A DNA stretch of 13,996 bases from a virus, in UHGV virus genome UHGV-0150765; one strand, 5' to 3'. The position numbers were made by a program, and so were the translations under genes. The notes under the pieces were generated by a model. It saw nothing but the letters and a program-made list of their open reading frames with translations. It did no database searches and had not been told where the DNA came from. Positions 569 to 9,555 of the stretch are shown here, piece after piece; positions within the stretch are counted from its first letter, which is position 1; each line of letters starts with the position of its first letter.

Positions 569-1570
569 TTACTTAATTAACTGTAAAGCTTGTTCAAGAC
601 GATCCAGGCGATTAACAGATTCTTCCCAAATCCTTTTAGCCTGCTCATATTCTTTCTGTGCTTTATTAGAAATTTCTAGAACTTCTTTATAAGCTTTTTC
701 CAGTGCAATAACTTCTGGACGAATTTCTACCGGTTCAGGCGAATCGTCAAGACATTCCATTAGTTCCTCAAGGGTAGTTTCTTCTTTAGGAGTATTCACA
801 ATTTCATCACATTTTTGTTGGTAAATTTCTTTATCAGTCGGTGAGTACGCGCACTTTACTTCACGAAGGCTAATTACAATTTTATATCCTTCCCAACCGC
901 ATATATTCTTAAAAGGATATGTATGAATATTTTCTACTGTTTCCATACAAAGTAATGCGGTCTCTAATTGACGAGTTATAGTGCTAGCAATTGAGAAAAA
1001 TTTATTAATATTCTTTTGGTTAGTTTCTGGTGTAAAAAATTCATAATTCACAAAAATAGCTGCTTTATTTTTATCAAGTTCATATTCTTTTATGATAATC
1101 ATATCAGAAGCCAAAGGATGAATTTGACGATAATCGCCATAACATAATTTAGAAGCTGATTTTAGAATTTGCTTCTTAAAAAGTCTGAAATTACTAATCC
1201 AACGACGAGTAAAAATGTTCTCAGGGTCTTCTTTGACATTAAGATGATAAGAATTAACATCACCGAACCAATTGTATCCTACTACATCTTTAGTTCGTTT
1301 AATTTCTTTCCCAAAATTACCAAGAATATCCCGATTAACCAAATATGAAAGAAGACGAGACTCTTTAAAGGTTTTCTTGATAACATCTTTATCTACACGG
1401 CTAGAAATTTTACGAATTTCATGAATAAATTTAGCAGAAGAAACAATACTTGCATCAACACTATTGAGCCATTGATTGATAATAGAAAGAACGCTATTTT
1501 GGCCAAACATCGGTATAGCTTTATCATCAATAACTCTATTGAATGATTTGATATATTCGTTACGAGTCAT
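569..1570 (-). CDS. hypothetical protein, 333 aa, paralog family member with coiled-coil-like C-terminus
   Basis: Track ORF 569..1621 starts at an in-frame TTG inside the promoter. First ATG at 1570-1568 has GGAG 6 nt upstream. LFKKQILKSASKL aligns with LFRKQLKQILSTASRL of 1628..2647. C-terminal 60 aa are E/K/Q/L-rich. Confidence 0.75.
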   Translation of the reverse strand: MTRNEYIKSFNRVIDDKAIPMFGQNSVLSIINQWLNSVDASIVSSAKFIHEIRKISSRVDKDVIKKTFKESRLLSYLVNRDILGNFGKEIKRTKDVVGYNWFGDVNSYHLNVKEDPENIFTRRWISNFRLFKKQILKSASKLCYGDYRQIHPLASDMIIIKEYELDKNKAAIFVNYEFFTPETNQKNINKFFSIASTITRQLETALLCMETVENIHTYPFKNICGWEGYKIVISLREVKCAYSPTDKEIYQQKCDEIVNTPKEETTLEELMECLDDSPEPVEIRPEVIALEKAYKEVLEISNKAQKEYEQAKRIWEESVNRLDRLEQALQLIK

Positions 1571-1598
1571 AATAATCTCCTCAGTAGAAAGTAAGAAC

Positions 1599-1628
1599 AT
1601 TATACCACATCCTTGTGGCAAAGTAAAC
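1599..1628 (-). promoter_or_regulatory. T4-type early promoter for 569..1570
   Basis: Minus strand GTTTAC (1628-1623), 18-nt spacer ending in TGG, TATAAT (1604-1599). The -35 overlaps the stop codon of the upstream gene. Confidence 0.7.
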
Positions 1629-2647
1629 TAGTTCAGTGCATTTAGTGCATTGTTCAGTTTAGAACGTTGCTTTGTCAGATTTTGAACCCTTGACTGAGCT
1701 TGTTCTAACACCTTTTCAGCTTCTAGCACTTCATTGGTCGCTTTAATGAGTTCAGCATCTACTGCCTTAAGAGACTTCTCAATCGCGTCAGCGTGCCATT
1801 TTTCTACAGGTTTAAAATTTGAATTTTCAGTAGGAAGAAAACTCACTTTATTAAGTTTACATGCATCTATATTGCTTGAGCTATACATCCAAAATTTAGG
1901 ATCGTTTGATGAGTAATTAGATAAATTTAAGATATCTTGCACTTCCTGCTTTTTCTCTTGAACAACTTCGTCCTTTCTCAAAAATTCATATTTAAATGAA
2001 ACGACCATATCAAGTTCATACGTTGTTGTGTCTAATTTAAATCGCTCAAAACGAGGTAAAATCTTAGAATGAACACTAGCAACAACATCCATATACTTAA
2101 ATGCTTCTGTCAACTGTGATTTAAGGCATTCACAAATTGAAAGAGAATTTTTTGTGTTAGGTTTAAAGCTAATTCGTGCAGTTCTATTATTTTCTTTTAG
2201 CGGTCTTACTTCCATCTGGAGAGTATAACCGTCAAATTTCAGATTCTTTAAGTTAATATCAGAACCTTTTAATCGACTAGCAGTAGACAAAATTTGCTTT
2301 AATTGTTTACGGAATAGAGCAATAAATCTCCATTCAAGACGATAATGATTTGGATTAAAAAATCCAGTTGATAGATCGATCTTACTTTGACCGACGCCTC
2401 GAACAAATAGAGGATTTTTATAATCAATAGTTTTACAGAAATCGGTGAGCTGCTCACGAGCAGTCATTTGTGTAATATACCCTGCTTCGTTAAAATGACG
2501 TAACCATTCACTGCTATTCATATACTTAAAGTGAATGGAACTATTAACTCTATCAGGGTCTAAATTATTTTGACACAAAAATGTCATAACATCACGAGTA
2601 TAGCTGGCATTACGAACCATATCTTCAATTTGAGAACGAGTTTTCAT
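1628..2647 (-). CDS. hypothetical protein, 339 aa, paralog family member with coiled-coil-like C-terminus
   Basis: ATG at 2647-2645 with AAGGAA SD. Long ORF. Collinear similarity to 569..1570 and to the partial CDS at 1..514. Confidence 0.8.
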   Translation of the reverse strand: MKTRSQIEDMVRNASYTRDVMTFLCQNNLDPDRVNSSIHFKYMNSSEWLRHFNEAGYITQMTAREQLTDFCKTIDYKNPLFVRGVGQSKIDLSTGFFNPNHYRLEWRFIALFRKQLKQILSTASRLKGSDINLKNLKFDGYTLQMEVRPLKENNRTARISFKPNTKNSLSICECLKSQLTEAFKYMDVVASVHSKILPRFERFKLDTTTYELDMVVSFKYEFLRKDEVVQEKKQEVQDILNLSNYSSNDPKFWMYSSSNIDACKLNKVSFLPTENSNFKPVEKWHADAIEKSLKAVDAELIKATNEVLEAEKVLEQAQSRVQNLTKQRSKLNNALNALN

Positions 2648-2655
2648 AGTGTTCC

Positions 2656-3546
2656 TTAAGATTTAAGTAAATCAACAATTTTAATTAACTTTTCACGCTC
2701 AGATTTAGCTTTACTACTCAATCCAGATAGTCTGAAAATTTCATCATCATATTGTTGAATAGAAATATTCAGCTCTTCAATCTGCTTATTAAAATAATCA
2801 ATTTGCTCAGAATGTTTTTCGTTACTACGAACTGGCGCAGGTTTTGTAGGCAATTTAGTTGAACTGGATTCATCCGGGCGATAAATTAAAATACAACTTG
2901 AACCAATCGGACATTTTGCCCCAGATGAATATTCTAATGTTCCAGCTTCTTTTAAAACTTCAAAAGCTAAACAGAGATGATGCCCCATATTAACATAATC
3001 TGTAGAGCGAGCTCTGACGTAATAATCATCTCCACGAGTGCTAAATTTAAAGCATTTAAGGTCTTCTGTATTATTAGTTTTAAAAATCATTTGTTTATCT
3101 AGACCTTTAGCTAATCGAGCGCCTAATGCTAATAATCGTCGTTGATTTTCCCACAAATCCGCAATCATTTGGTCGAATGATAATTTCGGCATTAGTCGGC
3201 CATAAAGGTCATATCCTTTATTATAATTACGAAGGATTTCACTCGCGTTAATACGAGACAACGCTCCAATTTTATTAAGGGCTTTCATGATGCGATTAGA
3301 TAAACTCATTCCAGACCCATTTGTTCGCTGTAAATGTTTTTCTAATCCAAACCCAATATCAACTTTAAATTTATCTAAAATTTCAGCATGAACATCTCTG
3401 TCAATAACATTCAAATCCAAAGTTGGGTTAAATCTATGAAAAAAATTATCTGGCTCTCCACGACGAAATACAGTCCATTCATTCATCATTTTTTTATTAA
3501 CTAAAGATTTAATTACTGCGTTGACATTATTAATTACTACTGACAT
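2656..3546 (-). CDS. hypothetical protein, 296 aa, probable distant member of the same paralog family
   Basis: Track ORF starts at TTG (3567). First ATG at 3546-3544 has GAGGAAA SD. Weak similarity to neighbours (FNP motif; LAxxLxxxAxxLAKG region) and the same E/K-rich helical C-terminus. Confidence 0.7.
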   Translation of the reverse strand: MSVVINNVNAVIKSLVNKKMMNEWTVFRRGEPDNFFHRFNPTLDLNVIDRDVHAEILDKFKVDIGFGLEKHLQRTNGSGMSLSNRIMKALNKIGALSRINASEILRNYNKGYDLYGRLMPKLSFDQMIADLWENQRRLLALGARLAKGLDKQMIFKTNNTEDLKCFKFSTRGDDYYVRARSTDYVNMGHHLCLAFEVLKEAGTLEYSSGAKCPIGSSCILIYRPDESSSTKLPTKPAPVRSNEKHSEQIDYFNKQIEELNISIQQYDDEIFRLSGLSSKAKSEREKLIKIVDLLKS

Positions 3547-3553
3547 ATTTTCC

Positions 3554-3961
3554 TCACTCAATTTCAATTTTACTAAATATACAGAATATGATGGAAAAGA
3601 CTATATAAGCACCACACACAGATTGAACTAATACCATTCCAAAGAACCAGACAATATTATCAAACCATGTCTGTTTTACGTCGAAAGGACGTAAACTTAC
3701 AGTAATATTATCTCCTTTTTCTATTGAAGAATACATCTCCGGTGAAATATATTCGCTAAATCTATAACCGTCTTTGAGTTCATATACGGCAATAAACGAT
3801 AAACTAGACCCCTTTCCTTGAGTTCCTGTAAGGGTATTAACTACAGCAACATCATAATCTTTATAATGCATATAATCATTAATAGCATAATAACCATATG
3901 CAACTACTACACATAAACAACATATCAATAAATTCAATCTTTTAATTATCAACTGTTTCAT
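3554..3961 (-). CDS. small membrane protein, 135 aa, hydrophobic segments at both ends
   Basis: ATG at 3961-3959. N-terminal LNLLICCLCVVVAYGYYAI and C-terminal IVWFFGMVLVQSVCGAYIVFSIIFCIF look like TM helices. Stop is 7 nt from the next start. Confidence 0.7.
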   Translation of the reverse strand: MKQLIIKRLNLLICCLCVVVAYGYYAINDYMHYKDYDVAVVNTLTGTQGKGSSLSFIAVYELKDGYRFSEYISPEMYSSIEKGDNITVSLRPFDVKQTWFDNIVWFFGMVLVQSVCGAYIVFSIIFCIFSKIEIE

Positions 3962-6041: not shown

Positions 6042-6061
6042 AACTTTGTGAAAAATTTTTG

Positions 6062-6090
6062 AAATAAAAAAGGGAGCCCGAAGGCTCCCT
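6062..6090 (-). terminator. rho-independent terminator with UUCG tetraloop, after the NTase gene
   Basis: Minus-sense RNA: AGGGAGCC-UUCG-GGCUCCCU (8-bp GC-rich stem) followed by UUUUUUAUUU. Begins 2 nt after the stop codon. Confidence 0.85.
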
Positions 6091-6091
6091 A

Positions 6092-7105
6092 TCATTTATA
6101 ATAACTTCGGTGGTTTTCAAGATAGACCTTCTCAAGGAAGTCATCCCAGAAACTCATGTCTACTTTTTGCTGCATACCGTTCTTAGAAGCTTCAGTAGAT
6201 GCTGCTTCTACTTGATCGACCACATCTTCCAAAAACTCTTGAACCGTTTTAAATGGATGTTTACCCAACTTCACGTCGAGAATAAATGGAGCATCTTGGA
6301 GTGGATAAATCAAGTCGCCAGTTTTGTAAATTTCCAATAGTTGAAGTCCACCACGACAAGCATGACTCAGAGCTTTCCAGTCAATACCTTCATTGGCTTC
6401 AGCCTTACGAGCACGTTCACCATATTCAGCATCTAATTTGTTCAGTGACTGCTTAAGCTCAATAAGAGAAAGCGTTGTCTGATATTTACGACCCAACACA
6501 GTGTAGAACGTTTGTGGGCCTGTTTTCTCATGATTATGGAACACCCATTCACAGAATTCGTTTTCTGGAAGACGATGCTTAATATCTTCAACTTTAGTGC
6601 GACGCTGCTTAATAGAACCATCTTCTTGGTAATCAACCCATTGCTCAGGGATTTGATTAACTACTTTCAATACATCACGTAATGCAGCCAAACGAGAACC
6701 CTTGACACCGTATTTAGAAGCTTGCTTACGGACATATCCTAAATATGATTTCATGTTAGTCGTATAAAAACGAGAACGGTTGTCTTGAATAAACTTCCAC
6801 ACATCAGGCAAATCAGATTTAACCACTAGTTCAGGTGGAGTGTGAAGCATATCTAATGCTACAGTTTCACCATCTGCTGCTAATTTAAAGAAATATTTAA
6901 GACTGTATAGTTCATGGTCAATATCATCTTTAGTGTTTTTAGATGATGTGTTGTTAGTGTTTTTACTCATGTGCTCTTTGACATTTCCGATAAGAATATC
7001 GCGAGCAGGAGGAACAAAGATTTCTTTAAAATCTACATCAGATTCTGGGGTAGAAGTTCCATAAAGATGACTACCAAAATAGCTTTTCATTACTGTTTTC
7101 ATCAT
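6092..7105 (-). CDS. pol-beta superfamily nucleotidyltransferase-like protein, 337 aa
   Basis: N-terminal FGSHLYGTSTPESDVDF fits the minimal NTase signature G-S-x3-G-x5-S-D-x-D. A possible third acidic residue lies in VALDMLH. ATG at 7105 overlaps the upstream stop (ATGA). A UUCG terminator follows immediately. Confidence 0.75.
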   Translation of the reverse strand: MMKTVMKSYFGSHLYGTSTPESDVDFKEIFVPPARDILIGNVKEHMSKNTNNTSSKNTKDDIDHELYSLKYFFKLAADGETVALDMLHTPPELVVKSDLPDVWKFIQDNRSRFYTTNMKSYLGYVRKQASKYGVKGSRLAALRDVLKVVNQIPEQWVDYQEDGSIKQRRTKVEDIKHRLPENEFCEWVFHNHEKTGPQTFYTVLGRKYQTTLSLIELKQSLNKLDAEYGERARKAEANEGIDWKALSHACRGGLQLLEIYKTGDLIYPLQDAPFILDVKLGKHPFKTVQEFLEDVVDQVEAASTEASKNGMQQKVDMSFWDDFLEKVYLENHRSYYK

Positions 7106-7575
7106 TCAGCCTTATATTCAATAACAGGACATACTTTAGCTTTACGAGCTTTTAAAAATTCAACGATAATCGATTTCTTGGGTTGAATAGGAGGTAAACC
7201 TTTATACGCCCTATCAATATTTTCTATGTGTAAAGCATAATCCTTTTTCCATTTATAATCTTTATATTTTTCATGCAAATGTGCAGGAATAACAAATGAA
7301 CCAATAATAAGTAAAACAAGCAAAATGGCAAGTATAAATGCTGATGGAATAAGAGTCCATAAACTACCAAAAATAAGCCATTTCTGTATGATTTCTGCGC
7401 AGATGATAGTTAGACCTGCGAGTATAGTACATCCGAAAAAAGAAACGAAAAATGTAGGGATAACAATAGACCAAAAGTATGCACACAGTGTCTTAGGTCG
7501 TTTCCATTCGTCGTTAAACAGTTTGAATAATTTATAGTGCCAAGAGTTTTCATTAATAACCATAATTATAATCAT
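7102..7575 (-). CDS. integral membrane protein, 157 aa, at least two TM segments
   Basis: Hydrophobic stretches FWSIVIPTFFVSFFGCTILAGLTIICAEI and LIPSAFILAILLVLLIIGSFVI. ATGA overlaps with the genes on both sides. A second in-frame ATG at 7563 is an alternative start. Confidence 0.75.
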   Translation of the reverse strand: MIIIMVINENSWHYKLFKLFNDEWKRPKTLCAYFWSIVIPTFFVSFFGCTILAGLTIICAEIIQKWLIFGSLWTLIPSAFILAILLVLLIIGSFVIPAHLHEKYKDYKWKKDYALHIENIDRAYKGLPPIQPKKSIIVEFLKARKAKVCPVIEYKAE

Positions 7576-8093
7576 CCTTTCATTGAAGGTGTAACGTATG
7601 TTAAATACTTAATCATAGCCTCAGCTTCTGATTTTGACAATGAAATTTCTTCACCGTTTTGGCGAATAGAAACAAAATCTGGATGACGGTCACCGCCAGC
7701 CTTTAAAACACACATGTAAGTATCAACTTCGCCTTCAATATTTGAAATGATTGAAGCAGTTCCACATGAATGTGGTTGTTGATAAACTAATACAGCTTTT
7801 CTTCCACCGTTTGACTGTTCATAAACTTTTAACACATCAAACAAATCACTTCTTTTATCAATAGCTAAGATGTTGTTTTCATCTTCAATATTAAATCCTT
7901 CGGATACTTCATAAAGTGTCACCCATAAATCACCAATATCAATAACAGCGTTCACTTTTCCATGACTTTCAAGAGCATTACAAATTTTCTTAATTTCATC
8001 ATAACTCATTTTAATAATATCATCTCCTTGAATAAGGAAGATGTCATTTTTAAATTCAACACGAATTAAACCACTTCCACTTGAAATAAACAT
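7572..8093 (-). CDS. hypothetical protein, 173 aa, paralog of the adjacent 185-aa protein
   Basis: ATG at 8093-8091 with GAGGAAA SD. Shares GFNIE and a C-terminal SxxEAxAxxxYLxxVxPxM motif with 8100..8657. Confidence 0.8.
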   Translation of the reverse strand: MFISSGSGLIRVEFKNDIFLIQGDDIIKMSYDEIKKICNALESHGKVNAVIDIGDLWVTLYEVSEGFNIEDENNILAIDKRSDLFDVLKVYEQSNGGRKAVLVYQQPHSCGTASIISNIEGEVDTYMCVLKAGGDRHPDFVSIRQNGEEISLSKSEAEAMIKYLTYVTPSMKG

Positions 8094-8099
8094 ATTTCC

Positions 8100-8657
8100 T
8101 CACTTTGAAATCATAGTTGGAATGACAGAATCAAGATAAGTCTTTAGCGCAATAGCTTCGTCTTTGGTAAATGTGACAATATGTGATCGAAAATCGTCAA
8201 TTTGGCGAATAGTTAAGACATCTCCATCTTCATAACATTTTGATACGTTTAAAACAGTTTCATCATTCTGACTGCAAGCGTTAGTAATAATAGCATTGCA
8301 ATTTTTAAGCCATTTTAAACTATGTTTTCTTTCATTAGAATAATAAAAATATTTAATCTTATCTATAAAACTATCCCAATGGATAACTGATAAACACATT
8401 GACTCGCTTTCAATATTAAATCCTGGGCATGAAGAATAAAAATGAACTTTATTCTCATCATTGATGCTTACAATTTTATCAGTATAAGAATTTTCAATTT
8501 GGGTTAAATGAATAATTTCGTTAGGCGTAAAATATAGCATATCGTCTTCTTGTGTCAAACGATACATATTATTTACTTTTTCTATAGCCAATTCACCAAA
8601 AAGTGAACTAACTTCTAATACTAATCGTTTCATATTGATTCTCTTCGACTCACTCAC
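8100..8657 (-). CDS. hypothetical protein, 185 aa (or 177 aa from ATG 8633), paralog of 7572..8093
   Basis: GTG at 8657 has AAGGAG 9 nt upstream; an in-frame ATG at 8633 has only a weak SD. C-terminal FTKDEAIALKTYLDSVIPTM matches LSKSEAEAMIKYLTYVTPSM of the neighbour. Confidence 0.75.
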   Translation of the reverse strand: MSESKRINMKRLVLEVSSLFGELAIEKVNNMYRLTQEDDMLYFTPNEIIHLTQIENSYTDKIVSINDENKVHFYSSCPGFNIESESMCLSVIHWDSFIDKIKYFYYSNERKHSLKWLKNCNAIITNACSQNDETVLNVSKCYEDGDVLTIRQIDDFRSHIVTFTKDEAIALKTYLDSVIPTMISK

Positions 8658-8659
8658 AA

Positions 8660-8764
8660 TTACATACTCCTTTGAATAATATCAATAATGTTGTTCACCA
8701 GATTATAAGTAAACATTGGGTAATTATATTGAATCATCACATACACAACAAACAAAACTTTCAT
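8660..8764 (-). CDS. possible 34-aa hydrophobic leader peptide (MKVLFVVYVMIQYNYPMFTYNLVNNIIDIIQRSM)
   Basis: ATG at 8764-8762 has AAGGAG 6 nt upstream and sits just downstream of the early promoter at 8793..8822. Too short for the ORF track. Its stop overlaps the SD of the next gene. Confidence 0.25.
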   Translation of the reverse strand: MKVLFVVYVMIQYNYPMFTYNLVNNIIDIIQRSM

Positions 8765-8792
8765 TCTCTTCTCCTTAACAGTTGACAAGATT

Positions 8793-8822
8793 ACTATAAC
8801 ATAACCTTGCCAACTTGTAAAC
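8793..8822 (-). promoter_or_regulatory. T4-type early promoter for the 185/173/membrane/NTase operon
   Basis: Minus strand GTTTAC (8822-8817), 18-nt spacer, TATAGT (8798-8793), then AAGGAG 17 nt downstream. Confidence 0.6.
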
Positions 8823-8824
8823 CA

Positions 8825-8998
8825 TTAAATGGTGTTTTCAATAAAATTCTGAAGCTTTGTGTGAGCATCAACCATGATTTTCATTTCTTCCTTTGCGAAA
8901 GCTGTACCTCTTTCTCGAGCAGAATACTCATAGTCAGAAACTGCATTAGCATATTCTTCAATTAGCTTCATTAAAAACATCTGCTTTTCAGTTTTCAT
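8825..8998 (-). CDS. hypothetical small protein, 57 aa (MKTEKQMFLMKLIEEYANAVSDYEYSARERGTAFAKEEMKIMVDAHTKLQNFIENTI)
   Basis: Hand-translated; below the 60-aa track cutoff. ATG at 8998-8996 has the same GGTGGAATAATG context as the start at 9367. Fills an otherwise empty 160-bp gap. Confidence 0.45.
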   Translation of the reverse strand: MKTEKQMFLMKLIEEYANAVSDYEYSARERGTAFAKEEMKIMVDAHTKLQNFIENTI

Positions 8999-9182
8999 TA
9001 TTCCACCTAATCATTTCAAGATATTGAACTAACTTAGCTTTGGATTTGTCCAAATCCCTTTTAGCTGCTTCTATACCGTCGTATGAATATCCTTCACAAT
9101 GCTCAACTGCTAATTGATATGAATCTATTTCAATATCATGCGCTAATTTAATGATTTTTTCAAACTGTTCGCGTGTTAGCAT
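8988..9182 (-). CDS. hypothetical small protein, 64 aa
   Basis: ATG at 9182-9180. Tightly packed in a run of small early ORFs. Predicted helical. Confidence 0.6.
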   Translation of the reverse strand: MLTREQFEKIIKLAHDIEIDSYQLAVEHCEGYSYDGIEAAKRDLDKSKAKLVQYLEMIRWNNEN

Positions 9183-9184
9183 AC

Positions 9185-9367
9185 TTACACTCTCGTATTA
9201 TGATCGATAATTTCATCAAGAAACATATCTAACGCTTCTACAGCATTATCAACTTTAGCTTCAAATTCTTCAATACCTGATAAGGCAAAGTTAATGCGTT
9301 CCTCATCTGCTTTACGAATTAAAGCTACCAATTCCTTAATTTTATCCGCTTGTTCGATACTAATCAT
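9185..9367 (-). CDS. hypothetical small protein, 60 aa
   Basis: Track ORF starts at GTG 9403. The ATG at 9367-9365 has a GGTGG SD and shares one base with the upstream stop (TAATG), so that start is preferred. Confidence 0.6.
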   Translation of the reverse strand: MISIEQADKIKELVALIRKADEERINFALSGIEEFEAKVDNAVEALDMFLDEIIDHNTRV

Positions 9368-9555
9368 TATTCCACCACATATGAAAGAGAGAATATTGCA
9401 CACGCCATGTGAGTTGCAACTTCATCACACATATTATAACGTTTCTTAAGAAGTTCTACAAGTTCTTCACTAGTAACTTCATCCATGTCGACGAAAAAAT
9501 CACCATTAATGATGACGTAGATATTTCCTTCTTGATTAAGTGCTTCAATTTTCAT
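9367..9555 (-). CDS. hypothetical small protein, 62 aa, first gene after the early promoter
   Basis: ATG at 9555-9553 with GAGGAG SD 6 nt upstream. Promoter at 9584..9613. Confidence 0.65.

Follow-up and report, generated by a model that had tools for sequence, protein, structure and literature searches.

A tandem pair of MobD.1-family proteins in a T4-like phage with a predicted PC4-like fold and a candidate membrane-protein partner

Two neighbouring genes in the early region of a T4-like phage raise a simple question: what are the proteins of 185 and 173 amino acids (aa) that they encode, and with what do they work? The genes lie in the virus genome UHGV-0150765, of which we analysed a stretch of 13,996 nucleotides (nt), referred to as the window. 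About half of the genes of phage T4 are still without a function, and MobD.1, the T4 protein to which both are related, is among them. The pair belongs to the catalogued but uncharacterised MobD.1/Y05I phage family; family and fold type are what is known of it, and the window carries a modest variant. We tentatively propose that the two proteins are dimeric, soluble partners or regulators of a co-translated membrane protein with two transmembrane helices. We favour this reading over binding of RNA and give it a probability of about 0.4. The contributions of the analysis are the assignment of a fold, a three-repeat plan like that of Pur-alpha, the proposed partnership with the membrane protein and the recognition that T4 is without half of the module.

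The two proteins are paralogs of the MobD.1 family

Both open reading frames (ORFs) are found on the minus strand, at positions 8100–8657 (185 aa) and 7572–8093 (173 aa, ATG start), 6 nt apart. The start of the longer ORF is ambiguous: a GTG at 8657 with the sequence AAGGAG 9 nt upstream yields 185 aa, and an ATG at 8633, the start annotated in phage BW-1, yields 177 aa. The original prediction, made from the sequence letters, saw a tandem duplicated pair here and named non-significant shared motifs as the result that would speak against it. This alignment check was run, and the similarity proved to be far above chance: the proteins align in BLASTP across 176 columns with 30% identity (E = 1e-10), which takes in the full length and more than the two motifs, and both carry the Pfam domains PF24449 (T4_y05I_N) and PF24448 (T4_y05I_C). 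The duplication is thus borne out, and as the paralogs are only 30% identical it must be old. The two motifs, GFNIE and the C-terminal SxxEAxAxxxYLxxVxPxM, are real and conserved. A strong divergence of the N-terminal halves was claimed as well; the cysteine counts do differ (5 and 3), but the N-terminal halves are 27% identical, against 31% for the C-terminal halves.

Against PF24449 (gathering threshold 24.9 bits) the 185-aa ORF scores 129.5 and the 173-aa ORF 120.0 bits, with E values of 1e-35 to 1e-38; the corresponding scores against PF24448 are 75.9 and 79.6 bits (E 1e-21 to 1e-22; gathering threshold 27 bits). In the 185-aa ORF the two domains occupy positions ~8334–8624 (PF24449, E = 8e-38) and ~8112–8321 (PF24448, E = 3e-21); T4 MobD.1, on which the Pfam family was founded, reaches 146.7 bits against PF24449. 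Both ORFs match phrog_1502 with E values of 1e-64 to 1e-80 (5e-80 for the 185-aa ORF), and the 185-aa ORF shares 82% identity with T4 MobD.1. The locus has the expected position between the small genes mobD.2–mobD.5 and nrdC.11 of a T4-like genome. By these alignments we assign the 185-aa ORF as the ortholog of T4 MobD.1 and the 173-aa ORF, for which T4 has no counterpart, as its full-length paralog. Identity and predicted fold of the pair, the latter described below, are highly probable. In the literature, searches for the T4 protein (mobD.1, Y05I, NP_049711, T4p097) led to a table that lists the site where mobD is inserted and otherwise to papers on other subjects.

At the DNA level, the paralogs share two exact matches, 16 nt at the GFNIE codons (7884–7899 and 8409–8424) and 12 nt at the IRQ codons (7658–7669 and 8201–8212). 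Codon bias probably explains them, and they could possibly serve as microhomology for recombination. A search for DNA repeats between the two genes found only short matches at conserved motif codons and no evidence of recent gene conversion.

The family, found in T4-like phages of enterobacteria, is small. When 1.84 billion cluster representatives were scanned exhaustively with HMMER, 21 proteins matched at E ≤ 1e-3, and those matches that were traced to phage records or contigs all lie in T4-like phages. The proteins come in two forms, a full-length form of 173–186 aa and a form of 74–83 aa that consists of the C-terminal domain alone and is found in genera such as Marfavirus and Tegunavirus; common to both is the core (F/L)TKxEAxALxxYLxxVIPTM. 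The isoelectric point (pI) lies between 4.2 and 5.8 in 13 of 14 family members. None of the conserved residues of the N-terminal domain (Q22, D25, Y61, G66, N68, E70 and E72) is basic. The most conserved elements of the family are the helix of the third repeat and the tail that follows it, which suggests that this part is a protein interface.

The predicted fold follows a Pur-alpha-like plan of three repeats

The pair had been described as having an unknown fold. This did not hold, since the family is already in Pfam and AlphaFold2 models display a PC4-like/PUR/Whirly fold. The model of the 173-aa protein (predicted local distance difference test, pLDDT, 84.8; alignment of 14 sequences) consists of three repeats. 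Repeat 1 (residues 2–43) and repeat 2 (residues 49–94) each have four strands and a helix, and repeat 3 (residues 101–167) has five strands and a helix. On the DNA, repeats 1 and 2 (residues 1–97) correspond to positions 7803–8093 and repeat 3 (residues 98–173) to 7575–7802. In the model, repeats 1 and 2 are predicted to pair within the chain into one PC4-like/PUR/Whirly domain, and repeat 3 would be a lone beta-alpha half-domain. A separate model of the C-terminal domain reached a pLDDT of 81.4.

Structural comparison of the 173-aa model gave the highest match score for repeats I–II of Pur-alpha (10.3), followed by MRP2 (8.4), an SsgA-like protein (8.0), the Whirly protein PBF-2/p24 (7.3), StWhy2 (6.2), Pur-alpha repeat III (~6), PC4 homologs (5.2–5.8) and a PC4-like protein of phage T5 (4.2). 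The model of the C-terminal domain matched the N-terminal domain of KhtT (6.6), Pur-alpha repeat III (6.0 and 5.7), PC4 homologs (5.0–5.6) and Borrelia Pur-alpha (5.6); a look at the literature on KhtT turned up nothing relevant. Repeats 1 and 3 are also homologous in sequence, as hhalign gives a probability of 88% (E = 3e-6) and the hidden Markov models of the two domains match each other. For repeat 2, hhalign detected no sequence similarity to either of the other repeats.

Janowski & Niessing (2020) distinguish two classes of PC4-like folds: type I, with two repeats in one chain, and type II, in which a single beta4-alpha repeat forms an obligate dimer with swapped helices. In their description Pur-alpha is the only protein that has both types. 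The models show the PC4-like fold as they define it. A lone beta4-alpha repeat is not expected to fold by itself (PMC7549692). The predicted architecture of MobD.1, a type I domain plus a lone repeat, mirrors the plan of Pur-alpha; if this is true, MobD.1 would be the second natural example, after Pur-alpha, of an intramolecular PC4-like domain joined to a lone dimerising repeat. The likeness is one of fold and architecture only, because the proteins have no PurA match in Pfam at E ≤ 1 and a profile search of the sequences in the Protein Data Bank (PDB) gave nothing relevant, only a chance match with E = 6.3. Placement in this fold together with the three-repeat plan gives MobD.1 a testable handle.

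The family gene is followed by a gene for a two-helix membrane protein

Downstream of the paralog lies a gene for a membrane protein of 157 aa (7102–7575, minus strand; phrog_944 and phrog_22816) with two predicted transmembrane helices and a pI of 9.3. It is followed by nrdC.11 (6092–7105, minus strand), the last gene of the unit, which encodes a Pol-beta nucleotidyltransferase of the RlaP family (PF10127) according to Pfam, phrog_388 and the T4 annotation. The match to the Pfam RlaP model has an E value of 1.7e-11 and 44.7 bits (cut-off 23 bits), that to phrog_388 an E value of 1e-136, and T4 NrdC.11 has been assigned to cluster 5 of PF10127 (PMC12776372). Start and stop codons of these last three genes overlap in ATGA sequences at 7572–7575 and 7102–7105. 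Through these overlaps the membrane protein appears to be translationally coupled both to the paralog upstream and to the nucleotidyltransferase downstream.

We compared this arrangement across 31 loci, which were fetched from IMG/VR via the nucleotidyltransferase. A family member, either full-length or C-terminal domain only, was present in 23 of them, and a further locus contained a degenerate copy. In all 24 the next gene codes for a transmembrane protein of 117–166 aa, and the 15 of these proteins that were extracted and compared are all homologs of the 157-aa protein of the window. Their cytoplasmic ends, strongly conserved across genera, read NSWHxKL...SLCxYFW at the N-terminus and KARKxKxCPxIE(F/Y) at the C-terminus, with an invariant cysteine in each. 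All homologs are unannotated proteins of T4-like phages without a Pfam domain. The nucleotidyltransferase follows the membrane gene directly or, in several genera, after one or two extra genes.

Record counts agree with this picture. The nucleotidyltransferase was found in 1565 phage records, including Aeromonas, Acinetobacter and Vibrio phages, the membrane protein in 934, and the MobD.1 family in ~730 with a full-length query and ~100 with a C-terminal domain query. Three sampled loci with a divergent nucleotidyltransferase (51–54% identical) are without a member of the family. From these counts and these three loci it follows that the tightest partner of the family is the membrane protein and not the nucleotidyltransferase. 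The strict pairing with one two-helix protein thus points there for a partner, more than to the nucleotidyltransferase that was stressed earlier.

T4 has lost half of the module

In T4, MobD.1 is present and the paralog is absent. DNA alignment revealed that T4 has the HNH homing-endonuclease gene mobD (L001, 14451–15258) in place of positions 7106–8075 of the window; the replaced segment comprises the paralog except for its first six codons and the whole gene of the membrane protein. Only 47 phage records contain the mobD cassette, each with at least 99% identity to T4, as against some 430–480 that have the paralog. The two-copy state is therefore common in Tequatrovirus and T4 is the exception. 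A homing endonuclease has displaced both the paralog and the membrane gene from T4, and studies confined to this phage would therefore miss the complete module.

Copy number in the family ranges from none (locus L009, which has no membrane gene either) through one (T4 and JS10) to two, as in the window. In six contigs we observed a single chimeric gene (protein P0011) whose N-terminal part comes from MobD.1 and whose C-terminal part comes from the paralog, as unequal recombination between tandem copies could produce. The membrane gene and RlaP still follow downstream, and a Tudor-like gene (PF24144) lies directly upstream (L038–L040; gene at 3001–3540 or 1306–1845). In protein P0025 (210 aa), the N-terminal ~50 residues of MobD.1 are joined to a C-terminal portion of NrdC.11; this implies that the remainder of MobD.1 was deleted together with the paralog, the membrane gene and the N-terminus of the nucleotidyltransferase. 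In the T2 record PV958097 (L003, 3416–4516) both family genes are split into six short ORFs, and BFVD lists T2 fragments of 50–63 aa from this family, which gives the genes the appearance of pseudogenes in T2.

Several hundred Tequatrovirus records have the two copies intact. For informative ortholog pairs the ratio of nonsynonymous to synonymous substitution rates (dN/dS) was 0.08–0.28 for both genes, with MobD.1 at ~0.13–0.14; MobD.1 pairs involving L007 were discarded, as an indel had put them out of register. On the other hand, T4 can lose the segment from nrdC.11 to mobD.3 (PMC9825161). Purifying selection thus acts on genes that are nonetheless dispensable.

Possible roles of the pair

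In the mechanism that we favour, the proteins would dimerise via repeat 3, as homodimers in phages with one copy and possibly also as heterodimers in the window. The soluble dimer would serve the membrane protein translated together with it as partner or regulator and would dock through the most conserved surface of the family, the repeat-3 helix and the VIPTM tail. The whole may be an accessory early module for interaction with the host. In this it would resemble SsgB, an acidic protein of the Whirly fold that works with its paralog SsgA and with SepG, a membrane protein. We favour this adaptor role because family members are acidic, the N-terminal domain has no basic conserved residues, the repeat-3 helix and tail are conserved, the membrane neighbour is basic and SsgB provides a precedent. 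A heteromer of the 185-aa and 173-aa proteins is plausible by analogy, since single repeats like the C-terminal one are completed by a second copy in every solved relative. It cannot be obligatory for the family, because many phages carry one copy (T4, JS10), one chimera or the C-terminal domain only.

Three observations weigh against the proposal. Most solved proteins of this fold, including the phage protein ChmC, bind single-stranded DNA (ssDNA) or single-stranded RNA (ssRNA). MobD.1 is intact in T4, where mobD stands in place of the membrane gene, and is therefore able to persist without this partner. Finally, the alignment behind the models is shallow, with 14 sequences, and the relative placement of the domains is uncertain (predicted template modelling score 0.54).

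Binding of ssDNA or RNA by the pair is a possible but less favoured reading. As the main rival, in which the proteins serve the RlaP nucleotidyltransferase, we consider it somewhat less probable than the adaptor role. Here the PC4-like domain would hold damaged RNA such as tRNA and the dimer would present it to NrdC.11, as part of a phage module for RNA repair or counter-defence alongside T4 Pnk and Rnl. The fold is indeed dominated by binders of ssDNA and RNA (Pur-alpha, MRP1/2, Whirly proteins, PC4, YdbC and the PC4-like protein of phage T5), the Whirly protein ChmC of jumbo phages binds RNA, the pair shares an early operon with the nucleotidyltransferase, and some relatives have the Tudor-like gene directly upstream. 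RlaP enzymes, to whose family T4 NrdC.11 belongs, add one or two nucleoside monophosphates to damaged 3′-OH ends of RNA and restore tRNA function (PMC12776372). However, nearly all family members are acidic, and with a pI of 4.2–5.8 and no conserved basic residues on the sheet, binding of nucleic acid to the sheet face is not what the sequences suggest. The conserved residues there are Q, D, N and E rather than basic or aromatic ones, whereas binding by ChmC needs clusters of lysine and arginine. The nucleotidyltransferase, moreover, outnumbers the membrane protein or the family by ~600 phage records, and in several genera one or two extra genes separate it from the family gene. T4 Rnl and Pnk are encoded elsewhere than beside nrdC.11, and no RNA ligase (RtcB or 5′-P ligase) is annotated next to nrdC.11 in T4, BW-1 or JS10. 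In the RlaP systems described so far, RlaP adjoins RtcB/RtcA (PMC12776372).

Both ideas could be combined in one module: in two-copy phages, heterodimers of the Pur-alpha-like paralogs would dock on the two-helix protein, where they would pick up damaged RNA as a substrate of the RlaP nucleotidyltransferase. Such a membrane-associated system for RNA repair or counter-defence would be undescribed, and we consider it improbable.

Slightly less probable still is a role as transcription factors that act on melted or single-stranded promoter DNA during early host or phage transcription, in the manner of PC4, Pur-alpha and plant Whirly p24. The Pfam label, 'y05I-like putative transcription factor', suggests such a role; PBF-2/p24, PC4, MoSub1 and Pur-alpha are among the structural neighbours, Borrelia Bpur is a transcriptional modulator, and the genes lie behind an ortholog of a T4 early promoter. 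But the label apparently stems from fold resemblance only, with no supporting literature found, and the acidic charge and the lack of basic conserved residues count here as they do for RNA binding. Tight coupling to a membrane protein would not be expected of a transcription factor, and the genes are deletable in T4 and degraded in T2. That the second copy is redundant cargo, left by a recent neutral duplication on its way to loss, with shared motifs as mere remnants and no separate roles, fits the variable copy number (none in L009, one in T4 and JS10, a chimera in P0011, fragments in the T2 record) and the deletable nrdC.11–mobD.3 segment, but is equally doubtful given 30% identity, which indicates an old duplication, the intact state of both copies in several hundred records and the low dN/dS of both.

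Since laboratory phages can do without the genes and only one phage group has them, we expect a limited impact, unless a link to host defence is found. PADLOC defence models matched none of the five proteins of the operon.

Transcription unit and genomic setting

The window covers the early region of a T4-like phage (Tequatrovirus) from tk and rI through nrdC. Every gene lies on the minus strand, in the order regB, vs.1, vs, tk.4, tk, rI.1, rI, rI.-1, mobD.5–mobD.2 and nrdC.11 down to nrdC.4. The 2 kb around the pair are 96–97% identical to hundreds of Tequatrovirus genomes, and the NrdC.11 protein is 100% identical to its counterpart in Yersinia phage PST. An Rfam scan of the whole window found no RNA families.

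A promoter scan identified a strong sigma-70 early promoter at 8793–8821 (minus strand), TTTACA-17-TATAGT with an extended TG and 10 of 12 matches. It aligns base for base with T4, where the −10 hexamer corresponds to 57966–57961 and so ends ~7 nt upstream of 57954. Among the T4 early promoters that have been named is Pe57954 (PMC6024815), and by this alignment we assign the window promoter (8821–8793) as its ortholog. The first ORF behind it (8660–8764, minus strand) is a hydrophobic mini-ORF of 34 aa, which T4 annotation, alignment and translation identify as the ortholog of mobD.2; 2 nt separate its stop from the GTG of the 185-aa ORF. Directly behind nrdC.11, a terminator scan found a hairpin like that of an intrinsic terminator (6071–6090, minus strand; 8 bp, six of them GC pairs, followed by a T-run). 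The unit thus reads promoter, mobD.2, MobD.1, paralog, membrane protein, NrdC.11, terminator. The original prediction placed the pair at the head of an operon that ends with the nucleotidyltransferase; the end is as predicted, but mobD.2 comes before the pair.

The gap of ~48 nt between nrdC.11 and nrdC.10 (6043–6092) holds the terminator; in BW-1, T2 and L038 a gene for a Mod-like ADP-ribosyltransferase, whole or split, lies between these two genes. The stretch immediately upstream of the promoter contains another tandem family: three consecutive small genes (8825–9403, minus strand; 72, 64 and 57 aa) at the positions of mobD.4, mobD.3 and mobD.2a are DUF7438 paralogs (E 4e-13 to 5e-18). The nrdC.4, nrdC.5 and nrdC.6 proteins (569–3567, minus strand; ~300–350 aa) share a coiled-coil-like C-terminus, and nrdC.5 matches DUF7235. 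They are not established as a further set of paralogs, as their similarity is not significant (E 0.05–0.5; nrdC.4 against nrdC.5 in BLASTP, E = 0.048). Public records that match positions 7000–9000 (H15, H17, H146, H147 and others) carry annotation artefacts that have spread: MobD.x proteins appear as 'molybdopterin-guanine dinucleotide biosynthesis protein MobD', NrdC.11 as 'thioredoxin', and small ORFs as 'helicase loader' or 'thymidine kinase'.

Comparison with known systems

The closest known protein is T4 MobD.1 (UniProt Y05I_BPT4; PF24449 and PF24448; phrog_1502). It resembles the 185-aa ORF in its position after mobD.2 and in its early promoter, and the 173-aa ORF carries the same two domains from end to end. 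The loci differ in what follows: T4 has one copy and then mobD, where the window has a second copy and the membrane gene, as in some 430–480 records. Among solved structures, the predicted three-repeat plan of MobD.1 resembles Pur-alpha with its repeats I–II and III (PDB 3k44, 5fgo and 8chw).

Paralog heteromers are known for this fold. MRP1 and MRP2 form one, and a heteromer of Pur-alpha and Pur-beta has been suggested. Unlike the phage pair, MRP1/2 are strongly basic, bind RNA as a 2:2 tetramer of two-repeat domains and have no third repeat. The C-terminal domain of the pair, and the family members of 74–83 aa that consist of it, match the homodimers of single-repeat PC4-like proteins (PC4/Sub1, Borrelia Bpur, YdbC and the PC4-like protein of phage T5; PDB 6ycs, 4bhm, 3n8b, 2ltd and 4bg7). 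These are basic on the sheet and bind ssDNA, whereas the C-terminal domains of the phage proteins are mostly acidic and conserved in helix and tail.

For the adaptor reading the nearest parallel is SsgB/SsgA of the SALP family (PDB 3cm1). SsgB is actinobacterial, forms trimers, lacks a third repeat and has no sequence similarity to the phage pair, for which we found no evidence of a contact with FtsZ. The likeness lies in the arrangement: an acidic Whirly-fold protein that has both a paralog and a membrane partner, SepG.

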